64,000 bases of DNA from IMG/VR virus record IMGVR_UViG_3300034073_003340, positions 356,634 to 420,633 of that record; one strand, written 5' to 3'. This DNA comes from a virus. The position numbers and the translations under genes were made by a program. This document shows, piece by piece, positions 18,848 through 35,388 of this stretch. Every line of letters begins with the position of its first letter. Position 1 is the first letter of the stretch. The notes under the pieces are model-generated. The model was not told the origin of the DNA and searched no databases. It worked only from the letters and a program-made list of their open reading frames with translations.

Positions 18848-19444
18848 ATGCCTTGGACCTTTGAACAGAGAATCCATAAAGCGTGTAATGCGTTGGTAGA
18901 TCGTAGCCTGCTAGATGAGTCACAGATCGAGACTCTTCGCAGACCACTATACTTTGGGCAGTACGCCTATAGTATTGGCTTATCTTTGAATCTGGCCCAT
19001 TGGGGCGATTGGCGGGAAATCAAACAATTTCTTCATGGAGTTTTTGAACCCATGAATGCCACAATTCAAAGCAATCAGCGGACCTATCAGTTTAATGCTT
19101 TTTCCAGCGATCCTAATATGCTTCGCTGGTTCATCCGTCATCAGTCCATGTTTACATTCAATCATATCCGCATTGTCGACAGATCGTGCTGGCATCTTAG
19201 TCTTCCCAAGCCTCGCCCCAAAGCGAAGTTTTATGGAGAGTTCGGATGGCGGTTCGAGTTTAAAGATTCAAAATGGGGATTGGATGCTGACAATGTTGCT
19301 GAACTTGATAAGCTGTCAGGCCCAGTCAAGCTGGTAACAAAACCACGCACCTTTCTCTATTTGGATAAGCTATCAGATGTTCTCATGTTCAAACTCATCG
19401 TAGGTGAGCAACTTCTGAGCTTGGATGACCGACATACCTTGTAG
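18848..19444 (+). CDS. Long (198 aa) member of the FKLTWGG family
   Basis: C-terminus ...YLDKLSDVLMFKLIVGEQ with an upstream W-rich segment. Confidence 0.5.
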   Translation: MPWTFEQRIHKACNALVDRSLLDESQIETLRRPLYFGQYAYSIGLSLNLAHWGDWREIKQFLHGVFEPMNATIQSNQRTYQFNAFSSDPNMLRWFIRHQSMFTFNHIRIVDRSCWHLSLPKPRPKAKFYGEFGWRFEFKDSKWGLDADNVAELDKLSGPVKLVTKPRTFLYLDKLSDVLMFKLIVGEQLLSLDDRHTL

Positions 19445-19513
19445 GTTTTGTTGACATCCAACCTCTCTCCGAGGTATAAAGGGAGTTCGGATCAACAATT
19501 CATGAGGTGATGG

Positions 19514-20056
19514 TTGAGATTTTTTGGATTAATGATGCTTTTCTTGTTCTGTTTGCTAACGCCAAAACCAGCCGAAGCAGGAACACTTACTAGATACCAG
19601 GGGCTGCATACTGCGGTTCGCAAAGCTGGACCACTGATTCCTCAGATTCAGCAAGCCAATGCGACCGATCAGGACCAGATGTTATGTATGGCACTTAACA
19701 TCTATCATGAGATTCGAGGGGGGACTTCTCGAGATCAGTGGGCGGTGGCGTTTGTGACTATCAATAGAACAAAACGGAGCGCGTTTCGTGCTCGTACGGT
19801 TTGTGCTGTTGTTTGGTCGCCAAGCCAGTTCTCTTGGACTCGTAAGCCAATGAAAGCACAGATACCGCGTGAGAAGTCAGCATGGGCAGAAAGCCAACGC
19901 AAAGCTGCCTTGATTCTTACAGGTGAGAGAATGAATGATCCTACGAACGGAGCGACGCACTTTAGTCGATCGCTCAATCAATCATGGGCTAGAAACCTGA
20001 TTAACAAAGTTCGTATCGGAGCCCACTGGTTCGCGAGGTTGCCTGGCAGCAACTAG
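19514..20056 (+). CDS. SleB-type cell-wall hydrolase (Hydrolase_2 family) with signal peptide; endolysin candidate
   Basis: Signal peptide MRFFGLMMLFLFCLL...AEA, and the core MLCMALNIYHEIRGGT...AVAFVTINRTK...RTVCAVVWSPSQFSW matches the SleB catalytic domain. Confidence 0.7.
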   Translation: MRFFGLMMLFLFCLLTPKPAEAGTLTRYQGLHTAVRKAGPLIPQIQQANATDQDQMLCMALNIYHEIRGGTSRDQWAVAFVTINRTKRSAFRARTVCAVVWSPSQFSWTRKPMKAQIPREKSAWAESQRKAALILTGERMNDPTNGATHFSRSLNQSWARNLINKVRIGAHWFARLPGSN

Positions 20057-20081
20057 GATTTCCACAAACTCAAAAGAAAGA

Positions 20082-20110
20082 AGAGCCCGCCCCTAATAAG
20101 GGCGGGCTCT
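20082..20110. terminator. Bidirectional terminator between convergent SleB-like and queD genes
   Basis: AGAGCCCGCCC-ctaataa-GGGCGGGCTCT, followed by ATAGTTTTCGG. Confidence 0.65.
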
Positions 20111-20134
20111 ATAGTTTTCGGATAGTCTGATAAA

Positions 20135-20689
20135 TCAGCCAATATATAAGGCTGAATTTGAACCATGTTCAAAACATTCTACCGAAACAAGACGAACGTC
20201 CGGATTGACAGCATAACGACCCAATTCGCCAGTCTTCATCTTTTCCAGTAGTTCAGATGCTTTATCATAAACCAACTTTGCTGTTAGTTCACATCCTACA
20301 CCAGGAACGATCCTGAGGTTACATACCCTTCCTTCTTCAAAAGGCTCAGCTTCGGAGTCAGGTTCTAGGCCATCGTAAACAGAATGAATGGAAAAGCTGG
20401 CTAGCTCTTTGAACTTTTCAAGGGCCGGATCATCCTTGGCGACCAAGATAGTGTGATCAAACATATAGTCTAGGTATTCCTTAATTGGCTTCATACCGCC
20501 AAAATCAAAACACCAGTTCTTTTCATCAAGGGTCTCTGATTCAAAGACAAACTTGAAGCCCAGACTATATCCGTGAAGCGTAGAACAGTGCGAGTGATTT
20601 GCCTTCCACTGACGGAAGCAACAGGAGAGACCACGGTCGGTTCCGTAGGTCTTGGTAGATTGAAACTTTGCCATTTTTATGGTTCTCAT
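20135..20689 (-). CDS. queD: 6-carboxytetrahydropterin synthase / 6-pyruvoyl-tetrahydropterin synthase family (QueD-like)
   Basis: CxxxHG motif region (HSHCSTLHGYSLGFKFVFE) and overall PTPS-like layout; common in T4-like marine phages. Confidence 0.55.
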   Translation of the reverse strand: MRTIKMAKFQSTKTYGTDRGLSCCFRQWKANHSHCSTLHGYSLGFKFVFESETLDEKNWCFDFGGMKPIKEYLDYMFDHTILVAKDDPALEKFKELASFSIHSVYDGLEPDSEAEPFEEGRVCNLRIVPGVGCELTAKLVYDKASELLEKMKTGELGRYAVNPDVRLVSVECFEHGSNSALYIG

Positions 20690-20788
20690 TTTCGTGACAC
20701 AGAATCTTTAAAGAGGGATGAGTCGTCGTCCTCTATCATTCATTTATATAGAACTGGACAAAAATCTGCAATATAGACTTCACCAGAA

Positions 20789-21782: not shown

Positions 21783-21796
21783 AATTGATCCTCTGA

Positions 21797-22096
21797 CTAA
21801 TGGGTTTTACAGGCAAGCGTTCCTAGCCATACTAACTTGAAATAGATAGCATCTTGCTTGTTTTCAAAAGATATATTGTGAGGTGTCGTCGTATTATCAA
21901 TGGAGTAACAAGCTTTGGTATGTTTGTTCAACCAAATTGTTTCTTCCATATTGGGTTTGCGAACCAGTCCAATCTGATATTGGTAATATTTGAGGGACTG
22001 GCGATGGGGATATCTCCAGACACTAAGACGCTGGTGGTCTGCGGGAGTCAGCCGGTGCTTGATATCCCAATATTTCCGGCTCACTGTCCACTCCAT
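21797..22096 (-). CDS. FKLTWGG-family small protein (cluster 2 member)
   Basis: C-terminus DAIYFKLVWLGT. Confidence 0.55.
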   Translation of the reverse strand: MEWTVSRKYWDIKHRLTPADHQRLSVWRYPHRQSLKYYQYQIGLVRKPNMEETIWLNKHTKACYSIDNTTTPHNISFENKQDAIYFKLVWLGTLACKTH

Positions 22097-22371
22097 GTCA
22101 ACTTGAACAATACAGCTTCATTGACATCAGAAAACCAGATGTCAACCACAAATTGAAAAGCGATGTCGTTGCCATTGATATATATTGGCTCATAGGTTGA
22201 AACATAGACATCATTTTCGCAGTGGTCCCTTATCCATCTGCACATCTCGTCAGATAACGATGGAATAGATGATGACGATTCAATCTCAGGGTGATTTACT
22301 GGCAGGGCAACAGAGAAAAACCCAGCCTTTTTCCTGAATGTTTCGCTGCGGTTGTAGAGAAATATATTCAT
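22081..22371 (-). CDS. FKLTWGG-family small protein (cluster 2 member)
   Basis: C-terminus RWIRDHCEND...EAVLFKLTWSGQ; overlaps its neighbours by 16 nt and 4 nt. Confidence 0.65.
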   Translation of the reverse strand: MNIFLYNRSETFRKKAGFFSVALPVNHPEIESSSSIPSLSDEMCRWIRDHCENDVYVSTYEPIYINGNDIAFQFVVDIWFSDVNEAVLFKLTWSGQ

Positions 22372-22598
22372 AGGAAAGTTAGTTTAAACAGCAAAGCATG
22401 GTCAAGCTTTTCAAAACACCAAGTTACCACAAAATGAGGCTCGGGTGTTTTAACTAGTTTCCATCCCGCAGTCGTAACTCTACCTGTATTGTGGTCTTTC
22501 ATCCATTGTTTGAACACCGGGGTCGCCACTGGATTATTTCTTATTCCCCTGGTTACCGTTAGACTGTTGGCCGGCACCGTGACATGATACTTTTTCAT
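22368..22598 (-). CDS. FKLTWGG-family small protein (cluster 2 member)
   Basis: C-terminus KQWMKDHN...HALLFKLTFL. Confidence 0.6.
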   Translation of the reverse strand: MKKYHVTVPANSLTVTRGIRNNPVATPVFKQWMKDHNTGRVTTAGWKLVKTPEPHFVVTWCFEKLDHALLFKLTFL

Positions 22599-22858
22599 AG
22601 AAATGTCAACTTGAACATCGCCGCGTGGACCTGGTTGCTGAAGAAGATCTTGGTGGGAAGCTCTTTGATCAGGTTGTGACTAATGTTCATGATGATCCAG
22701 TGGTCACGAACTGGCGTGTATTGGTGTTGGTCAGGGTGGCGGAACTGTCGAGGCCCAACAACCCTTTCCAACCACTCTTCAGCTTCCTGGGTCAACTTTA
22801 CCGCATAGCCTGGCATCCATACACGATCATTGTCGCGATGGACGCTAATTGAAATCAC
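22595..22858 (-). CDS. FKLTWGG-family small protein (cluster 2 member)
   Basis: C-terminus EEWLERVVG...AAMFKLTFL. Confidence 0.6.
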   Translation of the reverse strand: MISISVHRDNDRVWMPGYAVKLTQEAEEWLERVVGPRQFRHPDQHQYTPVRDHWIIMNISHNLIKELPTKIFFSNQVHAAMFKLTFL

Positions 22859-23145
22859 GAGAACTTGGCCTCGAACTCCTGAGCTACCTCGATTCGATCC
22901 TTGGGGAAGAACACGGTTGTGATGTCGTGCTCGTCCGACGAACGCGAGGTCATGACCTCGATACCATGGCCCTCAATGAAGGCACGAGCCTCATCGCCGA
23001 TCACCCAATGAAAGGTGTCCGGCCACTTGTGATCCGTTTCCTTCTTCATATGAGCGAAGCCGACCATGCGTACGGGAATACACAGGGCCTGCTTCGCCCG
23101 TATGCGCTCAAAAGCGGACATGATCTCGGCGTGACGGTCGGTCAT
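22855..23145 (-). CDS. Hypothetical protein in a GC-rich cassette with the CCA gene
   Basis: 96-aa ORF with a 4-nt overlap to cca; local GC is clearly higher than the flanks (by eye). Confidence 0.45.
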   Translation of the reverse strand: MTDRHAEIMSAFERIRAKQALCIPVRMVGFAHMKKETDHKWPDTFHWVIGDEARAFIEGHGIEVMTSRSSDEHDITTVFFPKDRIEVAQEFEAKFS

Positions 23146-24278
23146 GCTTCGATCGCCAGCAGTTCTTCCTTGGTTCGCGTAAACCGACTGAATACCCAGG
23201 CATTCTCCAGCATCCGCAGCCGCTGACCCATGGCCGGGCCAGGCTTCATACCCAGTGCCAGCAGATCCTTACCCGTTACCGGGAAAGTGGGAACCTTGAA
23301 CGCCTCGGCATGACGTGCCAGCGAGGGCTCGCCTGCGATCTCCAGCATGGAAACCACATGATCCAGGGGGAACTTGTCGCGAGTCAGCATAACCTCAACC
23401 CGCTCTTCGGTCCAGTTCAGACCGCGATTGCGAATCAGGTTGCGCACCTTGGCTTCTTCGGCACTGCTCATCTTCCAAAACTTGAAGAAGTTCTCTTCAT
23501 CGGTGTTGGCGATCAGCGTCGACAGAGCAGCAACCGCATCATCCGACCGAGCCAGCTCAACGGGGTTGAACCGGAAAACACCCAGCGCACGATTGACGCC
23601 GGTCTTGAACATCGCGTCAACGATCCGAACCCGAGCCGGCATCTTGGGATCCAGCAGCTTGCTCATTTCCTGCCAAAAACGCTCCACACTGACAAGGTTC
23701 AGTTTGTCCAGAACTTCGGCATCGCTGAACAGATCCAGATCGTCCTGGCTCATCGTGCTGTCGAAACGAGCAGCAAAGCGGAAGTAGCGCAGAATACGCA
23801 GGTAATCTTCCTGGACTCGCAGTTCCGAAACACCAACAAAGCGCACAACCTTGTTCTTCAGATCCTCGCGACCACCAAAGTAGTCGTAAACCAGACCGTT
23901 GAAGTCCATGCTCATTGCGTTGATGGTCAGGTCGCGACGCTCAGCATCAATTTCGAAGCTGCGAGTAAACTCAACCTCGGCATGTCGACCGTCAGTCTCG
24001 ACATCCACGCGCAGGGTGGTGACCTCAAATGCTTCGCCGTCCACGACCAGCGTTGCCGTGCCGTGCTGGACACCGGTGGCAATGAAACCAAACTTGTTGG
24101 TGTTAGCAATAGCTTTCATTTCGTCCGGAGTAGCATCGGTGCAGAAGTCCACATCCTTGGGGACCACACCCAGCAGAGCGTCACGGACGCAACCACCAAC
24201 AAAGCGGATCTCGAAACCGGCAGAAGAAAATGCTTCTCCCAGCTTGCGCGTTTCCGGTGTCATCAGCTTGTCCAGCAC
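23142..24278 (-). CDS. cca: tRNA nucleotidyltransferase (CCA-adding enzyme) / poly(A) polymerase family
   Basis: Pol-beta head GGCVRDALLG..PKDVDF, RRDLTINA, and the neck ED..RILRYFRFAARF motif. Confidence 0.8.
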   Translation of the reverse strand: MLDKLMTPETRKLGEAFSSAGFEIRFVGGCVRDALLGVVPKDVDFCTDATPDEMKAIANTNKFGFIATGVQHGTATLVVDGEAFEVTTLRVDVETDGRHAEVEFTRSFEIDAERRDLTINAMSMDFNGLVYDYFGGREDLKNKVVRFVGVSELRVQEDYLRILRYFRFAARFDSTMSQDDLDLFSDAEVLDKLNLVSVERFWQEMSKLLDPKMPARVRIVDAMFKTGVNRALGVFRFNPVELARSDDAVAALSTLIANTDEENFFKFWKMSSAEEAKVRNLIRNRGLNWTEERVEVMLTRDKFPLDHVVSMLEIAGEPSLARHAEAFKVPTFPVTGKDLLALGMKPGPAMGQRLRMLENAWVFSRFTRTKEELLAIEA

Positions 24279-24315: not shown

Positions 24316-25044
24316 CTATTCGGGAGACGTCAACCTATTTGATTTTATTGTCAGCATTCTGGCTTTGAATTCTTCAGCAAGATCAGGGCGAAACAAAAAT
24401 ACCATAGCAAGCTGCCAAATACGCTGCTGTCTCCGCTCCTCAGACTTTTTGTTTCTCTCGGCATCGCGGATTTGCTTTGCTCCGGACAGCTTGCGATTTC
24501 GCTTGGTCCAGAGTTCGGGATTCTGTCGCGCTTTGAGAAAATCCTCAAAGGGTTCAGTTTGGCGATCACTGTTACATAGGGTACAAGCGAGAGCCAGATT
24601 ACTCAGCTTATCAGTGCCGCCATACATCTGAGGAATCTTATGATCCACCGTGGCCATTTGCTTTACCAGCATACCTTCCGGCGGACGCTGTTTTTTAACA
24701 CCCTCAACTGGTAGCCAGGTTTGACAATTACAAAATACGCAACGTCCATCCTGTTGGTTGAAGAGCTTGATGAGCTTTTTGCGCCTACTCATAGTGAATT
24801 TGGTATACCACCACTCCTTTTGATCGGGCGTTGGCCACTTTCGATTGACACCAGCTCGTATGACCTGACTATACGTCATATGATCAAGATGGCCAGCATG
24901 AATTTTATTTGTCTGGCTTACTGGGGATGCGATTGTAGATGTCTCGCATAACAAAGATGGGAAACATGATGAGTCGGACTGCTCCAACAACGAGTCGTTC
25001 TTGAATTCCTCGATTCTTTCCATGTTCCATTTTGTAATCTCCAT
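24316..25044 (-). CDS. HNH endonuclease
   Basis: CVFCNCQ...VDHKIPQMYGGTD...NLALACTLCN: an HNH core with flanking Cys pairs. Confidence 0.7.
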   Translation of the reverse strand: MEITKWNMERIEEFKNDSLLEQSDSSCFPSLLCETSTIASPVSQTNKIHAGHLDHMTYSQVIRAGVNRKWPTPDQKEWWYTKFTMSRRKKLIKLFNQQDGRCVFCNCQTWLPVEGVKKQRPPEGMLVKQMATVDHKIPQMYGGTDKLSNLALACTLCNSDRQTEPFEDFLKARQNPELWTKRNRKLSGAKQIRDAERNKKSEERRQQRIWQLAMVFLFRPDLAEEFKARMLTIKSNRLTSPE

Positions 25045-25061: not shown

Positions 25062-25307
25062 CTATTCACCACCAAAGGTCAACTTGAAAAGAATAGCAGT
25101 CTGTTTGCTTTCAAAGGCAAAGACATCCCGAGCTCTCTCACGACCCAGATAGTCATAATCTTGGACGATTTCCAAGTTGGCTTCTCTTAGCCAAAACTCT
25201 ATTTCTCGCATTCTTCGCCCGACCGCCGTTTTGACAACATGACGGGATGATATATTACTCAAATCCATCATCAAACCCCATATCAAAATACTGTGCGTCG
25301 TCGTCAA
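25062..25307 (-). CDS. FKLTWGG-family small protein (single)
   Basis: C-terminus EFWLREANL...TAILFKLTFGGE. Confidence 0.6.
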   Translation of the reverse strand: MTTTHSILIWGLMMDLSNISSRHVVKTAVGRRMREIEFWLREANLEIVQDYDYLGRERARDVFAFESKQTAILFKLTFGGE

Positions 25308-25968
25308 ACATTCGGTCTAGTTCATGTTTCTCAATATCATCTGCCCCCATAGAATCAAAATAATCGTCATCCTCTGAGTCTACTTGATGCCACTCTGCTT
25401 CATTGAAGTTCTTAAATTTGAAGTCCCGCTCAAGCAAAGCAACATAGAAGATATAATGTGGATCTCCCAGATCAGGAACATAGGTTATCTCAAGTGTGTA
25501 TATACCATAAGCCCCTAGGCTCTGTTTAAGCCTTTGTGTGAGATTTTTTAAATTTTCTGGAAATCTCACCTTGAGTTGTCCAGACCATCCCTTGCCAAAA
25601 ACCGCCTCGTCATCATTTAACCCAATATAGAAAATGGTGTCGATGTCATCGACAGTCATGTTTCTAAATTCCATATTTCGCGGACGGAAAAATATCTTTT
25701 CGTCCATGTCAAGGTGATTCAAAGGCACGTTATTGAGTGGCAATGGATTGGCATTAAGCCAGTTCTCAACCCCTTTTAAAGAATTGATGCTTTGGAGATT
25801 GTTTCTATGAATCTTATACTGATCAACAATCATTCGCAGACGGCGATAGGTCTCGGGTGATGCGGTTGACCACCGACGATCAGAAACAGCGTTATTGACT
25901 GAAAGAGCAAATTGTCTGAATTCAAACCATGAGCTGAATCTACGGTTATCCAAAACACTCCTGATCAT
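25255..25968 (-). CDS. Hypothetical protein with an acidic C-terminal tail
   Basis: 237 aa with a D/E-rich C-terminus (DDDAQYFDMGFDDGFE). Confidence 0.4.
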   Translation of the reverse strand: MIRSVLDNRRFSSWFEFRQFALSVNNAVSDRRWSTASPETYRRLRMIVDQYKIHRNNLQSINSLKGVENWLNANPLPLNNVPLNHLDMDEKIFFRPRNMEFRNMTVDDIDTIFYIGLNDDEAVFGKGWSGQLKVRFPENLKNLTQRLKQSLGAYGIYTLEITYVPDLGDPHYIFYVALLERDFKFKNFNEAEWHQVDSEDDDYFDSMGADDIEKHELDRMFDDDAQYFDMGFDDGFE

Positions 25969-27158
25969 AGAGCTTTAACCCTTGTCAACACTGTGCTCTT
26001 GTTACCCTTGAATTCATTATGGTCCTTGACCGTTCCGCGGATCTTTATGGTCTTGCCCACGTGGCTTTTGAGAGCCGGCTTGGTGGCAAACCACGTAAAG
26101 CGATTACCATGCCCATCGCGCATCTTATGGAGATAGCTGAATTCGAGGGTGCGAACTTCGTCCACTGTTACTTCGATCTCCATTTTCTGTCCCTTGACTC
26201 CCTGGAAAGTGGAGGAAGCCCCCTTGGGACGCATCCGGGCATAATAGCTACCAACGATAGAAGCCGCAATGCCAATGCTGCGAGGCTCGATAGCTTCAGC
26301 AAGTGCCACTACGCGAATATTGTGCTCATAGTCCGAGAGATCACCGTCGAGCTCGCTTGCCCAGTCGCGAGCCGCGATAGCAAGGTTACGAGCACCTTCG
26401 CTTACAATAGGCAACTGCTGGTGCATTCTTGCGAATACATCATCGGCAGTGCTTTTGCCGCCGGTTTCCTTGGCCTGCTTCTTACTCGTCCAGCCGCGAT
26501 CCAAGACACTTTCAGCGCAAAGCTGAAGGAACATCTCGGTACCAATCCAGCGATGATCGATCAGGCTGCTGCCGTCTTCGCCCTTGTTCCAGGCCATACG
26601 CTTGAGTTCACCCAAGCTCGCAATAAGCTCAGCCATCTTGGCCCACTTGTCAGCCTCACCGTGCCCCAAGAAATCCTTGAGGCACGAGCTACCAACCTGT
26701 CGAAATCCTTCAGCTTCGTTGAAGACCACAAACGTGTCGCGCCGACGACGCTTGTGACCACAGTGGTCGCAAACGGGTTCGCTGGTTCGGTATTCTTCGG
26801 GAAGTTCGCGCACATCAGTGGTGCGGACGATATTACCGGCTTCGTTGGCGTGGTCGATACGAGCCACGAACTCCCACCCAGCCAGCTTGGGCTCAGGGCA
26901 AGAAACAAATACTTCCATGATCTTCTGATTGAAGAACTTGGAATCCTTGGATTCTTCGAAGTGAAAACCCACAACGGTCATGAAGAGACGCTCTCCGGTG
27001 AGTTTTTGGGCCCGCTTACCAATACGGGTCATCTGGTCCTTGAACCATTCAAAACCTGCTGCCGGAATGTCGAACGTCTTGCCTTCTGCCATTGTTGATC
27101 TCCTCATCTGTTGCCCTGTTTCTACAATCAGGTGAGGAGATGTCAACCAGAATTTCAC
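25965..27158 (-). CDS. Hypothetical protein with a putative zinc-ribbon (CDHCGH...SSC)
   Basis: 397-aa ORF co-directional with its neighbours. The long antisense ORF 26019..27098 is judged spurious in this GC-rich stretch. Confidence 0.45.
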   Translation of the reverse strand: MKFWLTSPHLIVETGQQMRRSTMAEGKTFDIPAAGFEWFKDQMTRIGKRAQKLTGERLFMTVVGFHFEESKDSKFFNQKIMEVFVSCPEPKLAGWEFVARIDHANEAGNIVRTTDVRELPEEYRTSEPVCDHCGHKRRRRDTFVVFNEAEGFRQVGSSCLKDFLGHGEADKWAKMAELIASLGELKRMAWNKGEDGSSLIDHRWIGTEMFLQLCAESVLDRGWTSKKQAKETGGKSTADDVFARMHQQLPIVSEGARNLAIAARDWASELDGDLSDYEHNIRVVALAEAIEPRSIGIAASIVGSYYARMRPKGASSTFQGVKGQKMEIEVTVDEVRTLEFSYLHKMRDGHGNRFTWFATKPALKSHVGKTIKIRGTVKDHNEFKGNKSTVLTRVKAL

Positions 27159-27163
27159 TCAAG

Positions 27164-27193: not shown

Positions 27194-27204
27194 CTATTCT
27201 AGAT

Positions 27205-27582: not shown

Positions 27583-27635
27583 AAAAATCTCTCCTAATAG
27601 AGTAGGGTGTTTAGACTATTTAGCGAGATTGGGAC

Positions 27636-28076: not shown

Positions 28077-28654
28077 CAGAGGGCTGCGCTGGGCTTCAAC
28101 GAGTAGCCCTGTCGGGTCGTAGGAGCCATCGACTTGCGTAGAGTAATGATATCCCGGCGAACTTGTGTGATGATCTCACCCAGCCAGTTGGTTCCTTGCC
28201 AAGTGCTACGATCAAGAGCCCGAGGATCACTAGCATCCAAACCAATACCCCAAATTTTATCCCAGGGACTGGCTTCTACCAATGTGGTTCCATCAGTAGA
28301 TAGAAGCCACTCAAGAAATTCATCATTCTGTGTGAACTTGGCAAAGTTGGCACGATAGACAAACAGCTTGGCGTTCTTTTCCCAAGTTTCCTGATCGAAG
28401 TTCCTGACCGTCCGGCCTGTCGCCTTCTGTATCTTTGGGTTATCGGTCCCCATGATGATCTGAAGAGCGTCGTCATCGCCAAAGAGGATGGCTTTCTGCG
28501 CCATCATATATTGCTCGGCGGTATTGTAGACGACCCCGTCTACAGTGAAAAAGCTAGAGGCCCACTGACTGGCATAGCCACCATAGAAGAATGTGAACTT
28601 TTCAGTCATATCAGCACCATCCTGCGCGTTTGCCACCGGCATATGGGCGAGCAT
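28076..28654 (-). CDS. NADAR (YbiA/DUF1768) domain protein
   Basis: FTFFYGGYASQWASSFF...YNTAEQYMMAQKAILFGD...KATGRTVRNFDQETWE...ANFAKFTQN..L...LLSTDGTTLVEASPWDKIWGIG matches the NADAR consensus throughout. Confidence 0.8.
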   Translation of the reverse strand: MLAHMPVANAQDGADMTEKFTFFYGGYASQWASSFFTVDGVVYNTAEQYMMAQKAILFGDDDALQIIMGTDNPKIQKATGRTVRNFDQETWEKNAKLFVYRANFAKFTQNDEFLEWLLSTDGTTLVEASPWDKIWGIGLDASDPRALDRSTWQGTNWLGEIITQVRRDIITLRKSMAPTTRQGYSLKPSAAL

Positions 28655-29072
28655 ATCCCTGTATGATCATCAGTTGAGCCAGGCTCTCGCCATTAGAAAG
28701 ATAAACATCGGCGCCGACTCGTCCGCCGTATTTGTCCCACTTTAGGCCTTGGAGAGTGACCCGATTGCCGCTCAGCTTGAGCATACGAGTAGTAAAGAGC
28801 TTGGCTCCTGCCGCCGTCCGGCGTTCTTCATTACACTTGCCCCGCATCTCCGCGGTATCAATACCGCGAACCCGGACACCGATACGTCGTAGTTCCGGGG
28901 GAAGACCTGGCATATCAATGTAAAAGGTGTCACCGTCATAAACGCCAGTGACATTGTATTCATAGCGGGCTTGGGACAGTTTGGCGTCAGCAGTAGCTGA
29001 TCCAAAGAACGCGAAGGCCATAGCAGCCAAGATGGTGAACTTTTTCATACATGACCTTATATAGGCAAACAC
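28611..29072 (-). CDS. Secreted staphylococcal-nuclease (SNase/thermonuclease)-like nuclease
   Basis: Signal peptide, then VYDGDTFYID...VRVRGIDTAEM...GRVGADVY...ESLAQLMIIQGYARPY (the SNase fold pattern). Confidence 0.65.
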   Translation of the reverse strand: MFAYIRSCMKKFTILAAMAFAFFGSATADAKLSQARYEYNVTGVYDGDTFYIDMPGLPPELRRIGVRVRGIDTAEMRGKCNEERRTAAGAKLFTTRMLKLSGNRVTLQGLKWDKYGGRVGADVYLSNGESLAQLMIIQGYARPYAGGKRAGWC

Positions 29073-29095
29073 CTATAATGTCAACCAGTCATGGA

Positions 29096-29121
29096 AAAGG
29101 CCCCAGTTTCCCAGGGCCTTT
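29096..29121. terminator. Hairpin AAAGGCCC-CAGTTTCCCA-GGGCCTTT (conserved loop) downstream of the TelA-like gene
   Basis: Seen directly; followed on the minus strand by TTTTCC. Confidence 0.55.
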
Positions 29122-29128
29122 CCGGTGA

Positions 29129-30349
29129 TTATGCTCGGAGAGCAGCTTGGCGATTTGCCGCGCTGAGCAGCGTTTCCTTGAGCTTCTGTTCCGCACTCTG
29201 CAGGGCAGTTTCAGCGGCAGCGCGCTTGGCCTTGCCCTGTTCAGCAAGATCAATGCTGTCATTGATCGTCTGCATCAGCAAGTCGTTTGCCTGAACCGCT
29301 GCTTCGACATCAAAGATGCCACGTTCGATTTCAGTTCGAGCAACCTTGTTGCTCTGATTGAGTTGCTTGGCACTTGTCACCAACAGATCGTTGGTAAAAT
29401 CAGTCGCCGCCTTGGAAGCCTTGCCAGCTTCTTCAGCCCGCCATGCTGCGATGCTGACTGCCATCGTGCGCTTCCAAAGGGGAACCGACGTCAGCAGCTG
29501 AGTCTGGATCTTCTCTGCCAATCCCTTGTCGTTGGACTGAACGATGCGAATGCTCGGCAGTGCCTGGATCGTCACATTACGAGTGAGCAGCAGGTCCGCC
29601 CGCTTACGCTCCAGAGAATCACGAGCTTCAGTCATGTCTCGCACCGCCTGGGTGTCGTTCATGTCCTGCGTTTCGTTTGCCTTGGCCTGTAGTGCTGGGA
29701 TTTCCTTGGTGTTGACCTCATTCAAGAGATAATCGATAGCAGCAATCTGTTCATCGAGCGCATCGAGAAGTCCGAGGGTCGCTTCGTATTGCTTGTCCAA
29801 TGCCACAATATCCTTGAGCATCTGAACCCGGTGACCTTCGAGAATGTTGGCGCTAGCAATCAGCTGAGCTTCAACCGTCTTGTATTTGTCCAAGAACTTC
29901 TGGAGGACGCTCGCGCCACCGAATAGCTTTTTGAGGAAGCCGGGCTTTTTGCCAGTAGCCAGCTCGCCAAAGTCCAGGCCCTTCATTTCCCGGACCATTG
30001 CGTTCATCTGTTCACCCACCGGGCCAGTGTCCTTGGTGCGAACTCCCTGGAGCATCTGTTCCGATACCGCAGTGGTTGCCTTTTGAGCTTCAACGCCGAA
30101 CGTGATGATGGACTGGCTATCGCGCAGATTGATCTTGCTGGCCAGTTCACGGGCGCGTTCCACTGAAACCTTGGAGCCGGCTCGACCTACCTGGTCGTTC
30201 AGCGAAACGATTTCCTGTGAACCAATTTCAGGAACGATCAGTGCGTTCTCAGAAGTTGGGGTGGAGAGAAGTTCACCGGTAAGCGACGGGGTTTCCGTAG
30301 CCACGCCGATCTTAGTAGGATCAGATGCCATAATTTCAGATTCCTTCAT
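29129..30349 (-). CDS. TelA/KlaA-like toxic-anion-resistance family protein (tentative)
   Basis: About 400-aa all-helical acidic protein of TelA size, with an XpaC-like two-TM partner immediately upstream in the same orientation (as in yaaN-xpaC operons). The assignment rests on architecture and context, not a memorised motif. Confidence 0.4.
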   Translation of the reverse strand: MKESEIMASDPTKIGVATETPSLTGELLSTPTSENALIVPEIGSQEIVSLNDQVGRAGSKVSVERARELASKINLRDSQSIITFGVEAQKATTAVSEQMLQGVRTKDTGPVGEQMNAMVREMKGLDFGELATGKKPGFLKKLFGGASVLQKFLDKYKTVEAQLIASANILEGHRVQMLKDIVALDKQYEATLGLLDALDEQIAAIDYLLNEVNTKEIPALQAKANETQDMNDTQAVRDMTEARDSLERKRADLLLTRNVTIQALPSIRIVQSNDKGLAEKIQTQLLTSVPLWKRTMAVSIAAWRAEEAGKASKAATDFTNDLLVTSAKQLNQSNKVARTEIERGIFDVEAAVQANDLLMQTINDSIDLAEQGKAKRAAAETALQSAEQKLKETLLSAANRQAALRA

Positions 30350-30998
30350 TTTGGAGACGGCCCTTCATAACCGTAAGATTGACGTCAAAATCCATGACAT
30401 CGTTGGCCAAGAGTTTATCAAGCAACTCCTGGAACTTCTGCTCGATTGTATCGAGAAGCTCGTCGAATTGGGCCATTTGCTTTTGGGCTTCGATGCTGCG
30501 AGCACCGGTGCGACTCAGTTGAGCATACCCCTTGACCAGATTGATCGTCTCATCAAGGTAGCTGTTGAGCCATGACTGTGCGAGTCTGACATCCTTGGGA
30601 TCCTGTCGGAAGTCCTCAACGATCTTAAAGCCCAGGGCAACAATATGTTTGATCCTACGAGTCACGTTTGGCGCTCGGATCTGAAGAGATTCGTGTTGGA
30701 TCCGCTCAAGCTTTTCAGTGCCAACGCGGATAGCTTCCACTACCTCGGCAGTGGTAACACCACTGTTTTGTGTGTTGGCAATGCCGTCAATTTTGGCATA
30801 GAGATCTTTGATCTCTTGGCTCGTCACCGGACGGCGACCTGGCCACCAGTACCAAATACCTAGACCAGTAGCAGCGGCAAGCGGAGTCGCCAGCGCGAGA
30901 TCTGCTACAAAGCCTAGTGGAAAAGCTGCCATACCTCCGGCAAATACACATGCGGCTCCACTTAGGGCAGCAACCTTGCTAATCGTGCTATTTTTCAT
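30336..30998 (-). CDS. XpaC-like membrane protein (two N-terminal TM helices plus a helical domain), tentative
   Basis: Hydrophobic VAALSGAACVFAGGMAAFPLGFVADLALATPLAAATGLGIWYWW followed by a soluble helical region; 14-nt overlap with the TelA-like gene. Confidence 0.35.
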   Translation of the reverse strand: MKNSTISKVAALSGAACVFAGGMAAFPLGFVADLALATPLAAATGLGIWYWWPGRRPVTSQEIKDLYAKIDGIANTQNSGVTTAEVVEAIRVGTEKLERIQHESLQIRAPNVTRRIKHIVALGFKIVEDFRQDPKDVRLAQSWLNSYLDETINLVKGYAQLSRTGARSIEAQKQMAQFDELLDTIEQKFQELLDKLLANDVMDFDVNLTVMKGRLQNEGI

Positions 30999-31069
30999 CG
31001 AAGTCCTCTTTGAATTTAGACTCAGTTATACTCCTAAATAGCAACGTGTCTACTTTTCTTTGGAAGAAA

Positions 31070-31099
31070 GGAAAGGGTGGCAATTTTGCCACCCTTTCC
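31070..31099. terminator. Rho-independent terminator after the flotillin gene
   Basis: GGAAAGGGTGGCAA-tt-TTGCCACCCTTTCC perfect palindrome with a T-rich tail on the minus strand. Confidence 0.6.
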
Positions 31100-31118
31100 C
31101 GTAGAAGCCCTGTGAGGC

Positions 31119-32852
31119 TCACTGGTCGTCAGTGTGAATCCCAGCAAGTCGCTGTAGCTCTTCCTTGTCAGTAGGGGCGAGAGGTTCGTCCTTGACCCGA
31201 CGAGCATTAGACTTTGCGGGAGCCTTTGCCGCAACAGCTTCACCGACCGGAATAACCTCGGCCATGCTGCTCAGCATACCGTTCATACCCTGGCTTAGAT
31301 CAAGCCCCAGTTCCTTGGCTAGCGTGTCAACTACTGGAACCTGTAGTCGATAATTCAGCAGCGCATCAGTCATCTGAGTAGGGAGATTAGGACTGCCGTT
31401 TCCCACGGTTTCTCCCTCAACAGATCCAGATGCCTGACCGCCCATACCGCCGTTCATATGAACTACACGGAAGCTATCAATCTTCTCGATGGGCTTGCCC
31501 ATCTGCTCAAGAATAGCAGGCAGCTTTTCAATGAGCTTGAGTCGAATCTGCAGGGCGGCCTGTTCGGGCGACATTGTGTTTGCCGCTTCGTTGAGGGCGC
31601 GCTGACCTTCCGACTCAACTTCATAACGCTTGGCTTCAGCCTCGATGAGGCGTTCCTTGGCCTTGGCCGACGCATCTGCTGCTGCTAGTTCAGCTTCAGC
31701 ACGAATACGAACTGCTGCCGCATCTTCCTGCGCGCGACCCTCGGCCGCAATCACAGCCACTCGCTGGTCTCGTTCTGCCCTGGCCGTTGCCTCAACAGTC
31801 TTAACCTCTTCGCTGGCCCGAACCGCTTCAGCCCTGGCTGCGTCTGCTGCCGCGCGAGCTTCTGATTCTTCCTGAGACTTGGCAGCGACCTTGATTCGCT
31901 GATCCTGACTTGCCAGCTCAAGATCTCGGGCAGCTTCGGCCTGCGCAATCTTAATCTTGCGCTCACTTTCAACCCTGGCTTCTTCAGTGGCCTGCTCGGC
32001 ATGAATTACAGCAAGATCAGTTTCACGCTGGCGATCAGCACGGGTTCGCGCCAGTTCAGCTTCCTGTGCTGCTCGACGGGTTTCCACTTCACGCTGCTGT
32101 TCAAGCGTAGCAAATTCATCCTGCTGGCGAATTTCCAGAGAACGCTTGTTGGCCTCAAAGTTGCGCTGCTCAATAGCAACACGATTTTCCTGCTCGATAT
32201 CGTTTCGCTCTTTCTTGCGCGTTTCCGTGACCGACGTCAGCTTGGCAAGACCTTCAGCGTCGAAAGCGTTGTTGGGATTGAAGTGTTCCACAGAAGTCTG
32301 ATCAAGACCAGTCAGCGACACCGATTCAAGTTCAAGACCATTGGCCTTGAGATCCTCGGCCGCCGTGGTCTTAACCGTCTTCACGAACTCAGCCCGCTGG
32401 GTGTGGAGGTCCTGCATGTCCATTCCAGCAGCAACCGCGCGAAGGACGTCAACGAACTTACCTTCAATAAGTTCACTGAGCTGCTGGGGGTTCATAGTCC
32501 GGCGACCCAGTGTCTGTGCTGCCGCTGCGATGCTGCCATCGTCAGGTGAAACCCGAACATAGAACTCAGCCTTGACATCAACGCGCAGACGGTCCTTGGT
32601 GATAAGCGAGTCCTTGGCCTTTCGCTCAACAGTCAGACGCAGGGTCTGCATATTGATAGGAATGGTTTCATGAAACACCGGCAGCACAATTGCGCCGCCA
32701 TCCTTGACGACTTTCTGTCCGCCCATACCAGTTCGGACGAATGCTTGTTCCTTTGAGGCTCGCTGGTAGAGCCTGGTCATGAAGATGACCATTGTGAGAA
32801 TAACGACGATTGCCGCTACCACAATGCCACCAATGAATGCTAGATTTTCCAA
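31119..32852 (-). CDS. Flotillin-like SPFH/band-7 domain protein (YqiK/FloA-type) with a long Ala/Glu-rich coiled coil
   Basis: N-terminal TM segment, an SPFH domain (QAFVRTGMGGQKVV..., DRLRVDVKAEFYVRV) and an extended EA-repeat coiled coil. Confidence 0.8.
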   Translation of the reverse strand: MENLAFIGGIVVAAIVVILTMVIFMTRLYQRASKEQAFVRTGMGGQKVVKDGGAIVLPVFHETIPINMQTLRLTVERKAKDSLITKDRLRVDVKAEFYVRVSPDDGSIAAAAQTLGRRTMNPQQLSELIEGKFVDVLRAVAAGMDMQDLHTQRAEFVKTVKTTAAEDLKANGLELESVSLTGLDQTSVEHFNPNNAFDAEGLAKLTSVTETRKKERNDIEQENRVAIEQRNFEANKRSLEIRQQDEFATLEQQREVETRRAAQEAELARTRADRQRETDLAVIHAEQATEEARVESERKIKIAQAEAARDLELASQDQRIKVAAKSQEESEARAAADAARAEAVRASEEVKTVEATARAERDQRVAVIAAEGRAQEDAAAVRIRAEAELAAADASAKAKERLIEAEAKRYEVESEGQRALNEAANTMSPEQAALQIRLKLIEKLPAILEQMGKPIEKIDSFRVVHMNGGMGGQASGSVEGETVGNGSPNLPTQMTDALLNYRLQVPVVDTLAKELGLDLSQGMNGMLSSMAEVIPVGEAVAAKAPAKSNARRVKDEPLAPTDKEELQRLAGIHTDDQ

Positions 32853-32865
32853 AAAATTTCTCCTG

Positions 32866-33534: not shown

Positions 33535-33545
33535 AACAAGAGGAT

Positions 33546-33968
33546 TTACCTCTTGTCAATTGAATCGCTCCTAGTCTTTGGAATAATTTTTGAATCAGCC
33601 AATTTTGCTAATATTTGGCCATGACAGGCCTGTGGGTGACACCAGCAACCTAGACGTTTGCCCTTTAGCTCGTGAAGGGCATCCATCAAATGCGGCTGCT
33701 CAACAATCCAATCGGCATATTGTTTGATACATTCTTCACGGGTGCCATCTCTACCAACCACAAATGGATTACCCCATTTGGTCTTGCGATCAATACGGAC
33801 GTCATAATGATCTTCTTTGAGATTAACTACCGTGGTGCTGGGCGGTGGCCAAGAGAATAGATCATCTTTCATCGATCTACTTATTATAGAGGTAGGGGAC
33901 CTGGGAAGAATTTGCGACCCTGACCCAGGTCCCCAAACGGTTAGCAAAGAGGGGTTTGCCACCGCCAA
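33546..33968 (-). CDS. DUF4326-family protein
   Basis: GCWCHPQACHG with an upstream KWGNPF motif typical of DUF4326. Confidence 0.5.
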   Translation of the reverse strand: MAVANPSLLTVWGPGSGSQILPRSPTSIISRSMKDDLFSWPPPSTTVVNLKEDHYDVRIDRKTKWGNPFVVGRDGTREECIKQYADWIVEQPHLMDALHELKGKRLGCWCHPQACHGQILAKLADSKIIPKTRSDSIDKR

Positions 33969-34069
33969 TTAAGGTTTAGCAACTAAAAATGATTGCGCAA
34001 CTCTTTTTGCGACGAACTGTGTGATTATTCACAATCAGTGAATCAAATATTATTAACAATAAAGTAACG

Positions 34070-34423
34070 TTAAAATATTGCGTTGAGATGTTTTTCTATC
34101 TCACAGACCCTATAGGGTTTAGTTAAAATGGGCCATTGCTGAAATACTGTAGGTAGCTCTTGTGAATCCATGCCACTACATACCACAACAGGAATATTGA
34201 GCGCCGCTAGCATATTGGCTGCTCCGATGCTGGACTCGTCCCTGAGACCGACATCAAGAAACACACAAGAGATTTCATCCCCTTGCTCTTTGATGATAGT
34301 TTCAGCTTCAGAGTTGGTTGTAGCAGGTCCTAAAAGAGACAGCTCGTTGTCTTCACAAATGTCTTCCCATAAGAGATGAAGCAAGATTTGATCCTCAACG
34401 AGCAGAACACGGCCTTTAGCCAT
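34070..34423 (-). CDS. Standalone response-regulator receiver (CheY-like) domain protein
   Basis: RVLLVEDQ...(D)...FLDVGL...K: phospho-acceptor Asp layout in a 117-aa protein with no output domain. Confidence 0.6.
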   Translation of the reverse strand: MAKGRVLLVEDQILLHLLWEDICEDNELSLLGPATTNSEAETIIKEQGDEISCVFLDVGLRDESSIGAANMLAALNIPVVVCSGMDSQELPTVFQQWPILTKPYRVCEIEKHLNAIF

Positions 34424-34439
34424 GGTAGTCTCCTTTGTG

Positions 34440-34964
34440 TTAGGACATCAGCTTTGCCAACATCACCTGATTTACTGTGCCATTGTCGATAATCATTGCG
34501 CTACTGGGCTTACCAACACGAACCAATGCGCTAAGAACGTCTTCGTTGCCTTGCCCACTTTTAAAGAGCTTGGCATAAATGGTTCCCTTTTCACTGATTT
34601 GCTTTACCGTGCCCATTACCATATCAACGCGAGCACCTTCTGTGCCGCGAGGAAACAGGATTGTGTGGCCGATTTCAATACGACGACCCATGAGGTCATT
34701 ATAGAATGGGGTTGCTTTGTCTTCAGCAAAAAAGGTGCCACCTGCCCAATTGACCAAATGCTCAAGAAACGAGCCCTTTACCCAAAAGGGCCGCTTGCCC
34801 TTTACCGAGAGCCTATATTCATGAGCGCTATAATATTTGCTGGAAACCTGCATCACTCGGCCGATTGTTCCTGCTCGCGGCCCGGCAATCACCTTGGCAT
34901 ACTGCGGCCCATCTTCCATGGCTTTTAGCAGACCCATCGCAGTTTGGTAATTGTTAAGGCTCAT
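34440..34964 (-). CDS. Hypothetical protein
   Basis: 174-aa ORF. Confidence 0.4.
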   Translation of the reverse strand: MSLNNYQTAMGLLKAMEDGPQYAKVIAGPRAGTIGRVMQVSSKYYSAHEYRLSVKGKRPFWVKGSFLEHLVNWAGGTFFAEDKATPFYNDLMGRRIEIGHTILFPRGTEGARVDMVMGTVKQISEKGTIYAKLFKSGQGNEDVLSALVRVGKPSSAMIIDNGTVNQVMLAKLMS

Positions 34965-35202
34965 ATACGACCTCTTTGAAATTTTTCAATTTTCTACGCT
35001 AGCAGAGCGCAACTAAAAAAGCATGAATGCGTTAATAGCTGTTAAAGCATGATCTATAACCTAACGATCCACGAGTCTAGTGGATAGTCTGGAGCCGTCT
35101 AAAAAAAATTTACATATTGCCTGTTTGTTAGCTCTTGACATTTTGAAACTCACAGAAAAAGTGCAGGTCGAGATGGCCCACACTTTTCTGTGATTTTAGA
35201 TT

Positions 35203-35388
35203 TCAGACTAGTTCGTTATCAAACTGTAGACGAAATTTGAAGGCATCGTCGATGTTTGAAAATCCAACTTCTAAACCGTCAACTGCCGGATTCAAGACAT
35301 AGCCCTGCACTTGCTCGTCTTCAAGCCATTTTTCAACTTTGGTTTTGGAATCGGGTCGTGCCCGCATAACCCACGAATTTGCGACCAT
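35203..35388 (-). CDS. Possible degenerate FKLTW-family member
   Basis: C-terminus DDAFKFRLQFDNELV resembles the motif only weakly. Confidence 0.3.
   Translation of the reverse strand: MVANSWVMRARPDSKTKVEKWLEDEQVQGYVLNPAVDGLEVGFSNIDDAFKFRLQFDNELV

Follow-up and report, generated by a model that had tools for sequence, protein, structure and literature searches.

An old multigene family of small proteins, arrayed at two sites in a segment of a giant phage genome

The 64-kb window (the whole stretch of phage DNA analysed here) carries 19 copies of one uncatalogued small protein domain: 12 in a main array between two topoisomerase genes, five in a second array beside a CCA-type tRNA nucleotidyltransferase gene (cca), and one at each of two further sites. 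The copies are deeply diverged, and profile searches and orthology across related phages show that the ORFs make up one real and old multigene family, referred to below as the FKLTWGG family. An initial annotation of this DNA had counted 18 to 19 copies; the number is correct, but one ORF was wrongly named as a member (18848..19444) and one was missed (22855..23145). Its wider statement, that a single family extends well outside the main array and represents a large paralog load for a phage segment, is borne out.

Membership was assessed with two profiles. An array-only HMM, derived solely from the 12 ORFs of the main array (11.6-15.35 kb), was run against all window ORFs together with reversed and shuffled decoys (best decoy E=0.45). 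A second profile, A2, was built from 108 metagenomic relatives and includes one window sequence, so that it is largely independent of the window (best decoy 0.75). The seven outlying ORFs named earlier all have the coordinates and C-terminal peptides quoted for them, but the expectation that a main-array HMM would group them holds for only part of the set: five of the seven are recovered (21797, 22081, 22368, 22595 and 25062, with E-values from 3.6e-9 to 5.9e-3), the ORF at 35203 is borderline (E=0.14) and is supported by A2, and that at 18848 fails, scoring at decoy level (E=3.2). A2 matches 17 window ORFs plus the one at 35203, and six-frame scans of the whole 64-kb window returned no further copies.

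The main array lies on the plus strand, as do the genes flanking it: on the left the topoisomerase II large-subunit gene (9724..11595), whose product is 70% identical to the 'DNA topoisomerase large subunit' of Sinorhizobium phage Phosso and 60% identical to its Atu_ph07 counterpart, and on the right the topoisomerase subunit A gene (15413..16765; 66% identity to Phosso, 56% to Atu_ph07 and 84-88% to the relatives L009, L010, L016 and L017). Copy 1 (11609..11893, ending AVLFKLTWGG; A2 E=2.1e-12) begins 13 nt past the large-subunit gene and has full-length orthologs in L017 and L016 (47-49% identity). A protein identical to copy 2 (11893..12183, ending AFLFKLIWGGK; E=1.3e-10) is present in JGI metagenome 3300034072, and copy 3 (12168..12458, ending AMLFKLRWHNA; E=6.9e-12) has orthologs at 46-59% identity. 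Then come the short copy 4 (12451..12654, ending AMIFKLRL; E=8.7e-3), with orthologs at 49-57% identity across 67 aa, and copy 5 (12651..12905; E=2.5e-5), which has a divergent motif (SERFELAWFQ) and is the best conserved of all, its orthologs being 73-78% identical. Copies 6 (12893..13198, ending AMIFKLRWGGSP; E=1.4e-18, orthologs at 58-63% identity), 7 (13180..13476, ending AMLFKLTHG; E=1.6e-14) and 8 (13753..14022, ending AVWFKMVFGGK; E=5e-13, with numerous metagenomic orthologs) precede the divergent copy 9 (14022..14387, ending ALMLKLACGGD). Copy 9 is not matched by the A2 HMM, and hhalign aligned just its last 21 aa, at 54% probability; it was included on the strength of full-length orthologs (L016 5491 and L009 7797, 32-35% identity) that do match A2. 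The array is completed by copy 10 (14374..14733, ending ALLFKLTWTGRL; E=1.7e-8), copy 11 (14616..15080, ending ALLFKLTWYDTL; E=2.3e-6), whose true start is probably the TTG at 14715, and copy 12 (15067..15351; E=5e-5), in which LFILSWIG is followed by a 14-aa tail and which stops 61 nt short of the subunit A gene.

The second array is on the minus strand, with cca (23142..24278, minus strand; Pfam PolyA_pol and tRNA_NucTran2_2) as its upstream flank. Its last gene (21797..22096, ending AIYFKLVWLG...; array-only E=1.2e-7, A2 E=2.2e-13) has an L022 ortholog (52% identity), as does the copy at 22595..22858 (ending AAMFKLTFL; E=6.9e-5 and 2.4e-6; 55% identity). Orthologs of the two copies between them, 22081..22371 (ending AVLFKLTWSGQ; E=3.6e-9 and 4.9e-15) and 22368..22598 (ending ALLFKLTFL; E=5.9e-3 and 2.9e-8), are missing in L022, the closest relative. 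Between this four-copy run and cca, directly downstream of the latter, lies a degenerate fifth copy (22855..23145, minus strand, ending VAQEFEAKFS) that was not on the earlier list. Alone it matches no profile. Its full-length L022 ortholog (45-47% identity) ends LAALFKLTFA, keeping the motif LFKLTF, the genes at its position in L010 and Phosso, orthologs too, plainly belong to the family, and its ortholog-group profile matches A2 with 97.7% probability; it was accepted because its orthologs match the family profile. The junctions overlap by 4, 4, 4, 4 and 16 nt, in agreement with the previous description of the copies as tandem and coupled, and translational coupling of family copies is probable from this arrangement.

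Two further copies, both on the minus strand, are isolated. The one at 25062..25307 (ending AILFKLTFGGE; A2 E=2e-10), already listed as a single copy and confirmed by the array-only HMM (E=1.7e-6), lies between a 237-aa gene and an HNH endonuclease gene, has a positional ortholog in L022 at 9903-10118, and probably starts at an ATG at about 25271. The other, 35203..35388 (ending DAFKFRLQFDNELV), had been called a weak remnant. It is a family member, with an A2 E-value of 1.3e-3 against 0.75 for the best decoy and an hhalign probability of 88% over 44 columns; since this match spans the whole domain, the copy is short and divergent but complete rather than a remnant.

The plus-strand gene at 18848..19444, previously taken for a 198-aa long form of the family, is instead the ortholog of a single-copy gene of ~200 aa conserved in the clade, whose counterparts at the equivalent syntenic position are 40% identical in Phosso, 19% in Atu_ph07 and 64-83% in four metagenomic relatives. 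Beyond its decoy-level score with the array-only HMM, hhalign gave 15% probability, or 12% with a 3-sequence profile, and the gene was excluded because the alignment covers only 23 columns, corresponding to its last ~23 residues, at these probabilities. Its C-terminus resembles the motif through chance or a very remote relationship.

The shared domain, C-terminal and ~60-70 aa long, is a small alpha/beta unit with the pattern W-[CL]-x-x-N ... F-x-F ... D-A-x-x-F-K-L-x-W-G-G. Conserved residues mark three elements: a helix that opens with Trp (W-[C/L]-x-x-N-[C/V]), a strand with F-x-F, and a last helix, D-A-x-x-F-K-L-x-W, after which G-G and the stop codon usually come. The N-termini vary freely, as does the loop joining helix 1 to the last strand, where the alignment shows an insert of variable length. 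Searches of Pfam, PHROGs and NCBIfam with up to 108 members gave zero matches, no related sequence was found in the PDB, and none of 10 longer family members is fused to a known domain. Two AF2 models of copy 2 (pLDDT ~71, pTM 0.51-0.60) are of moderate confidence and disagree in mid-protein, and structural comparison returned no informative relative. Window members have no TM segment, are Trp-rich and range in pI from 4.5 to 10.1. Tentatively, the proteins may be seen as soluble, cytoplasmic molecules that combine an invariant hydrophobic core with strongly differing surfaces (pI 4.5-10.1).

The family is essentially phage-borne. In metagenomes it is represented by 574 cluster representatives at E<=1e-3, whereas among about 185,000 species genomes a single one has the exact motif, inside a prophage-like region. 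Both array sites hold family members in Phosso and in four metagenomic jumbo phages; the related giant phages carrying the family include one cultured phage. Between the topoisomerase genes there are 11-14 copies in L009, L016 and L017, while Phosso has 4 at this junction and 4-5 at the cca junction, with about 20 across its first 50 kb and further copies at 396-469 kb; one third of its genome carries about 30-40 copies. L015 has about 23 copies within 7.2 kb, and one 417-kb contig has at least ~35. In Atu_ph07 nothing is inserted between the topoisomerase genes. Across relatives, copy number at the topoisomerase junction is 0, 4, 11, 12 or 13, and at the cca junction 3 versus 5.

Individual paralogs are matched, in the same order, by orthologs of 37-78% identity in five relatives, whereas the best in-window paralog reaches at most 37% and only over part of the length. 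Close paralog pairs were found in none of the arrays, the best pairs having 30-45% identity over part of their length, and no DNA repeats extend past a ~35-nt motif (69-77% identity); there are no recent duplicates. Poxvirus-type gene accordions, in which near-identical recent tandem copies amplify a gene for dosage, likewise repeat a viral gene in tandem, but such recent amplification is rejected here on account of the confined repeats and the low identity of the best protein pairs (31-43%). Because each paralog has a same-order ortholog, the arrays are old and not markers of recent horizontal cassettes; they predate the divergence of these phages, and have grown or shrunk as single genes were occasionally gained or lost. 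Values of dN are 0.16-0.53 for family members versus 0.11-0.14 for flanking core genes, and dN/dS is at most 0.28 where computable, dS being saturated. Each copy is under purifying selection, yet evolves about 3-4 times faster than the core flanks. A reading of the ORFs as annotation noise, or as duplicates in decay or without function, could be argued from the loss of the motif in 22855..23145 and the weak scores of some copies, but the frames are intact, orthologs persist between phages with saturated synonymous sites, dN/dS is low, and hundreds of independent homologs exist in metagenomes, all of which makes this explanation scarcely credible.

The initial annotation had placed the copies around a 'GC-rich cca cassette' and near the HNH endonuclease gene, suggesting that they may mark a hyperplastic accessory region and that the family might border horizontally acquired cassettes. 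The cca gene is syntenic in Atu_ph07, Phosso, L010 and L022 (identity 45%, 39% and 84% in Atu_ph07, Phosso and L022, respectively), and its GC content exceeds that of its own genome by 3 to 10 points in every relative, so the excess is a property of the gene. Acquisition of cca as a horizontal cassette is therefore rejected, and the clade-wide syntenic orthology of cca and its flanks speaks against bordered cassettes as well; cca and the two array sites belong to a syntenic backbone shared with Phosso and the four metagenomic jumbo phages. The HNH gene (24316..25044, minus strand; Pfam HNH), between cca and the copy at 25062, does adjoin that copy, but a homolog with 39% identity is in the same place in L022; the Phosso homolog lies elsewhere.

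T4-type hyperplastic regions are shuffled by events that promoter-early plus stem-loop (PeSL) motifs mediate (Arbiol et al. 2010, PMC2839356; Comeau et al. 2014, PMC4122927), and the arrays resemble them in placing a variable number of small non-core ORFs between core genes of a T4-related replication module. They differ in containing one family rather than a fast-changing collection of unrelated ORFans, only its copy number being variable, and in keeping order and orthology in distant relatives. Unlike PeSL cassettes, the array genes overlap, by 1-19 nt, are oriented like their neighbours and leave no intergenic space for a promoter or stem-loop; since they overlap each other, flanking repeat, promoter or stem-loop cassettes are absent. 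A generic sigma-70 scan found 28 promoter-like sites versus 25.4 expected, which is no enrichment, and no flanking direct repeats were found at array genes, so that identity with PeSL cassettes is also rejected. The tight packing, the shared orientation and the lack of room for promoters suggest co-transcription with the replication and RNA-metabolism genes, a point on which the sigma-70 scan is uninformative. If the copies were mobile or hitch-hiking ORFs marking a hyperplastic region with T4-like shuffling and bordering acquired cassettes (cca, HNH), the copy number differences at both sites, the Atu_ph07 topoisomerase genes without an insert and the adjoining HNH gene would be accounted for, but not the same-order orthologs, the occupation of both sites in five relatives, the lack of recent duplicates, the clade-wide synteny and GC excess of cca, or the equal placement of the HNH gene in L022. 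This possibility seems largely refuted by synteny, and we consider it improbable; what stands of the accessory-region proposal is the variable copy number and the HNH gene beside one copy.

Another parallel is Bacillus phage G, which has a ~35-copy zinc-ribbon family of proposed transcription factors (Iyer et al. 2021, PMC7824862). There too, dozens of copies of one small domain occur in a giant phage genome and the function is a guess, but the FKLTWGG family is clade-wide, its arrays keep their positions, and small temperate phages carry it too, in single copy. A zinc ribbon, with four conserved metal-binding Cys/His, is not what the sequences show: the Cys4 arrangement is absent, 5 of the 18 window copies counted lack Cys altogether, and at the two frequent Cys positions other copies have Leu, Val or Ile. 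The precedent remains relevant to the suggestion that the proteins are nucleic-acid-binding regulators of transcription, translation or tRNA, expanded into specific DNA or RNA binders. Weak fold resemblances including KH, RRM, ACT and Cas6-type ferredoxin-like domains, the strongly basic character of several copies (pI 9.5-10.1), the location of the window arrays among topoisomerase, cca and PTPS genes, and the Phosso arrays beside polynucleotide kinase and among tRNA genes are all consistent with it, and we regard it as rather unlikely, if the most probable of the alternatives. The same neighbourhoods speak against virion-associated proteins (internal, ejected or decoration) or assembly chaperones that would have diversified as the first to meet the host: all copies in the window and in relatives lie in replication, nucleotide and RNA-metabolism operons outside structural modules, the single copies of temperate elements have early or regulatory genes as neighbours, and Atu_ph07, the sole relative with a published virion proteome, showed no family member in its 20.5-kb syntenic segment. 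A virion role accordingly has little likelihood.

Multigene families of large eukaryotic DNA viruses, such as MGF110/360/505 of ASFV and the ankyrin and Bcl-2-like families of poxviruses, act in host range and immune evasion. They share with the FKLTWGG family tandem, deeply diverged paralogs that vary in copy number between strains and are kept by selection, although there is no sequence or fold relationship and the host here is bacterial. Their roles motivate a low-confidence proposal by analogy, that the family supplies a set of small cytoplasmic proteins acting as binders or inhibitors. Each paralog would be aimed at a different host protein, and the paralogs may serve host takeover or neutralise host defence or toxin proteins. 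Small non-core ORFs of T4 can inhibit host proteins, as does gene 55.2 with topoisomerase I (PMC4396842). Polymorphic-toxin immunity arrays (SUKH/Imm), in which each protein is thought to counteract a partner of its own (Zhang et al. 2012, PMC3482391), similarly consist of small (~100 aa), soluble and highly diverged paralogs in a row. The present carrier, however, is a lytic jumbo phage, no Pfam Imm/SUKH model matched 10 window members scanned directly, 108 relatives or the 10 longer members, and none of the scanned neighbours (topoisomerase, cca, HNH, Smr, PTPS) is a toxin, several small neighbours being unannotated.

Taken as a whole, the observations are best explained by an old array family that provides a repertoire of host-directed binders or inhibitors, an explanation that we favour tentatively and that may well prove wrong. 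The long-distance conservation of each paralog fits any specialised function, not counter-defence alone. Related giant phages carry dozens more copies of the domain at matching sites.

All seven open reading frames assigned to the FKLTWGG family outside its main array by the initial annotation are present in the window, with C-terminal peptides as quoted there. The main array, at 11609..15351 on the plus strand, consists of 12 family ORFs plus a small unrelated one (13469..13669). It occupies the whole interval between two topoisomerase subunit genes. A profile HMM made from these 12 proteins only was searched against all window ORFs of at least 40 aa, with reversed and shuffled sequences as decoy controls. 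It recovered five of the seven ORFs, namely 22081..22371 (E=3.6e-9), 21797..22096 (E=1.2e-7), 25062..25307 (E=1.7e-6), 22595..22858 (E=6.9e-5) and 22368..22598 (E=5.9e-3), while 35203..35388 was borderline (E=0.14, best decoy 0.45) and 18848..19444 was negative (E=3.2). The borderline ORF had been described as a weak remnant. Its membership is supported by a broad profile nearly independent of the window, made from 108 metagenomic relatives and one window sequence (E=1.3e-3 versus 0.75 for the best decoy), and its remnant status is not, as the hhalign alignment (88% probability) spans the whole domain; we therefore accept 35203..35388 as a short, divergent family member. [quoted passage not shown]

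Conversely, one ORF had been omitted. Located between the four-copy minus-strand run and the cca gene, 22855..23145 (minus strand, 96 aa) has lost the FKL motif (C-terminus VAQEFEAKFS), but its full-length ortholog in the closest relative of the window (45-47% identity) has the C-terminus LAALFKLTFA. The genes occupying the position of 22855..23145 in Phosso and in the metagenomic contig L010 are clear family members. By these sequence comparisons, it is a degenerate fifth copy of the cca-adjacent array. In the main array, the broad-profile match of 14022..14387 is limited to its last 21 residues, and this ORF is taken as a member because its full-length orthologs themselves match the profile; 13469..13669 is not a family member according to profile scans. 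Six-frame scans of the 64 kb found no further family copies. The total (12 + 5 + 1 + 1 = 19) agrees with the 18-19 copies previously proposed, and the tandem coupling of the minus-strand copies is also borne out, with overlaps of 4, 4, 4, 4 and 16 nt in order from cca to 21797. The longest-ORF starts of two members are probably wrong: the GTG start at 14616 (ORF 14616-15080) overlaps the preceding gene by 118 nt, a TTG at 14715 being more plausible, and 25062-25307 probably starts at an ATG near 25271, since its exact 81-aa product is absent from the gene-call collection.

The main array starts 13 nt past the topoisomerase large-subunit stop codon, and 61 nt lie between its end and the start of the topoisomerase subunit A gene; judging from this packing, it must therefore be transcribed together with these genes. 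Its sole non-family ORF (13469-13669, plus strand, 66 aa) lies just ahead of an 83-nt gap, the one sizeable gap of the array, in which there is a 9-bp hairpin at 13720-13743; together they may constitute an internal regulatory point. Shine-Dalgarno-like sequences occur at a few junctions (GGAGG before 14022, GGTGGA before 11893). The idea that the W-G-G codons of one gene serve as Shine-Dalgarno for the next coupled gene was rejected, as it fits few junctions only and none in the minus-strand array. Elsewhere in the window, a strong bidirectional terminator-like hairpin (20082-20110; 11-13 bp stem with 9 GC pairs, T-runs on both strands) separates convergent cell-wall hydrolase (19514-20056) and PTPS/QueD-like (20135-20689) genes.

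The window comes from a jumbo phage that is uncultured and belongs to the Phosso/Atu_ph07 lineage, as indicated by topoisomerase identities, by the lack of a near-identical phage record and by metagenome matches. The topoisomerase II large-subunit protein (9724..11595) is 70% identical to that of Phosso (469 kb) and 60% identical to that of Atu_ph07 (490 kb), with the remaining jumbo myoviruses below 50%. No near-identical DNA was found for 15.7 kb of the window among 50,697 phage records; exact window proteins are recorded from JGI metagenome 3300034072, on a 436-kb contig, and an IMG/VR contig from this sample is 100% identical to the window over a 397-aa gene. From 9.2 kb to cca (24.3 kb), Phosso and Atu_ph07 share the gene order of the window. 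It is shared more closely by four metagenomic jumbo-phage contigs (L009, L010, L016 and L017/L022, the last being the closest relative), whose topoisomerase genes are 84-88% identical to those of the window. In Phosso and Atu_ph07, phage-encoded ClpX and IF-3 genes precede the topoisomerase locus, and the Phosso annotation also includes ClpP and ClpS (relevant positions: 9170-9616 and upstream in the window; L001 13135-15818 and L025 2076-2375 in Phosso).

The number of family copies varies between these phages at both array sites. At the topoisomerase junction, there are none in Atu_ph07 (the genes being 10 nt apart), 4 in Phosso, 11 in L017, 12 in the window, 13 in L016 and at least 11 in L009; at the cca junction, there are 4-5 in Phosso, 3 in L022, 3 in L010 and 5 in the window, L022 being without orthologs of 22081 and 22368. 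Copies are also found elsewhere. In a 417-kb IMG/VR contig, one run of 7.2 kb contains about 23 of them, and four loci together contain at least about 35. In Phosso, about 20 more lie within the first 50 kb and about 8-10 at 396-469 kb, for a total of roughly 30-40 in the examined third of its genome (genome-wide counts for Phosso and Atu_ph07, each from part of the genome, are lower bounds). An association with tRNA genes was considered and rejected as inconsistent: the family is interspersed with tRNAs at 0-20 kb in Phosso and absent from its densest tRNA block. That block, at 420357-446806 (24394-48262 of locus L025 and 768-843 of locus L026), packs about 50 tRNA genes into about 25 kb, among them an annotated tRNA-Pyl(cta), an amber-reading tRNA. 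There are no tRNA genes in the window.

These arrays are ancient and their members have been maintained one by one, with occasional gain or loss. This follows from the conservation of orthologs in the same order, the lack of close paralogs and the substitution data. For every main-array paralog, the related phages have a full-length ortholog (37-78% identity, order kept), compared with at most 37% identity, over partial length only, to its best paralog within the window. Repeats at the DNA level are confined to the roughly 35 nt coding for the motif, and no close paralog pair was found in any array, the 23-copy one included (best pairs 30-45% identity). Between the window and its closest relative, dN is 0.16-0.53 for the family. 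The topoisomerase genes, the PTPS gene and the 18848 ortholog have values of 0.11-0.14, so that family members evolve about 3-4 times faster than adjoining core genes. Where computable, dN/dS is at most 0.28, a rough upper bound only given that synonymous sites are saturated, and dN ratios were otherwise used.

The initial annotation, sound as to the observation, thus mostly fails in its interpretation of the copies as possible marks of a hyperplastic accessory region around a horizontally acquired cca cassette. The cca gene encodes a bona fide CCA-type nucleotidyltransferase and is not a recent arrival: it is syntenic throughout the clade and GC-richer than its own genome in every relative (by 10 points in the window, 7 in L010, 3.7 in Atu_ph07 and 3 in Phosso). 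The window arrays lack the hallmarks described for T4-type hyperplastic regions (PMC2839356, PMC4122927): with their overlapping genes, they have no room for promoter/stem-loop cassettes, show no enrichment in promoter-like sites and contain a single family with conserved orthology. What survives of the hyperplastic idea is that variable numbers of family genes are tolerated at two junctions. The proximity to an HNH endonuclease gene is real: the gene next to cca (24316-25044, minus strand) adjoins the isolated 25062 copy, and both are in the same place in L022. This HNH gene is consistent with a mobile endonuclease that has either evolved fast or been replaced, being only 39% identical to its L022 homolog at the same position (10345-10824) as against 84% for the flanking cca, with the Phosso homolog (L001 11759-12301) occupying a different locus. 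Further along, a minus-strand block at 25965-32852 has a GC content of 51-55% (45.8% for the window), and its synteny with the closest relative extends over its whole length, with protein identities of 68-84%. It encodes a 397-aa protein without assignment, a NADAR-domain protein, a probable nuclease, and TelA-like and flotillin/SPFH proteins, the last two being membrane-stress-type functions and unusual cargo for a phage.

A word-indexed search retrieved 31 close relatives of the family, all metagenomic, small and without annotation. When 1.84 billion cluster representatives were searched exhaustively with a profile, 574 proteins were retrieved (E<=1e-3), mostly of 60-120 aa, some with two domain copies. 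They share a helix W-[C/L]-x-x-N-[C/V], a strand F-x-F and a terminal helix D-A-x-x-F-K-L-x-W, in which the residues W, F, A, F, K, L and W are each at least 90% conserved. The domain is at the extreme C-terminus in all cases, with 0-4 residues following FKLxW in about 80% of members and GG there in about 40%. No match to Pfam, PHROGs or NCBIfam was obtained for the window copies, the 108 relatives or 10 longer relatives, nor was a related sequence found in the PDB by profile search. Single members, being too short and divergent for tblastn, matched nothing in the phage records, and family loci were located with a degenerate DNA pattern encoding DAMLFKLTWG. This exact motif was found in 16 stretches of IMG/VR viral contigs and, among about 185,000 species genomes, in a single one, within a prophage-like region of Novosphingobium; the family is essentially phage-borne. 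It is not confined to jumbo phages, since small temperate or prophage-like elements have one or two copies: one in an IMG/VR provirus from IMG genome 641522612 (L012 7280-7585) and two in the alphaproteobacterium Novosphingobium guangzhouense (L020 2034-2264 and 2939-3295). Two AlphaFold2 models (pLDDT ~71, pTM 0.51 and 0.60; pLDDT ~91 for the two conserved helices) predict a small two-layer alpha/beta unit.

Sequence analysis indicates soluble, Trp-rich proteins with no hydrophobic segment; net charge ranges from about -7 to +7 and pI from 4.5 to 10.1 across copies. The conserved residues are mostly hydrophobic, and both the N-terminus and the segment from helix 1 to the last strand are variable in length as well as in sequence. 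Single copies in small temperate elements have early or regulatory genes as neighbours. A ubiquitin-like C-terminal GG was rejected on C-terminal GG statistics and AlphaFold2 models, as was a metal-binding CxxxC site, its Cys positions interchanging with aliphatic residues. Multigene families of large DNA viruses are an example of binder/inhibitor repertoires, and a fixed scaffold with diversified surfaces, in many distinct viral paralogs, would be the pattern expected of these. Immunity-protein arrays are a further example (PMC3482391), as are small ORFs of T4, of which 55.2 is reported to inhibit a host enzyme (PMC4396842). On the strength of this resemblance, we tentatively favour a role in host takeover or counter-defence. 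Its most specific form, an unrecognised phage-specific module of scaffold and variable surface whose paralogs would each inhibit a host target of their own, be it a defence, toxin or housekeeping protein, is possible but rather doubtful; if true, the arrays would be the largest known counter-defence/takeover repertoire from a single fold. The main rival is that these proteins are nucleic-acid-binding regulators, which seems unlikely. A virion or assembly role is less likely than regulation, and distinctly improbable.

Lineage-specific expansions of small domains are already known in jumbo phages, the zinc ribbons of phage G being an example (PMC7824862), and it is the family itself that is new to Pfam, PHROGs, NCBIfam and the PDB. 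Neither that jumbo-phage review nor the paper on Sinorhizobium phage AP-J-162 (PMC11242549), a related phage for which 304 'unique' ORFs are counted, describes it. Large and uncatalogued, the family can be approached experimentally in a cultured phage, with an unusual mechanism not so far indicated. A sizeable share of the 'hypothetical' genes of giant phages falls into this one family, and its definition provides an annotation model accounting for part of the 'unique ORF' load in such phages. Phosso on Sinorhizobium meliloti offers a cultured, tractable system for the role of an ancient small-protein repertoire in infection, and if these proteins inhibit host proteins, every paralog would be a potential probe for a rhizobial defence or essential function.
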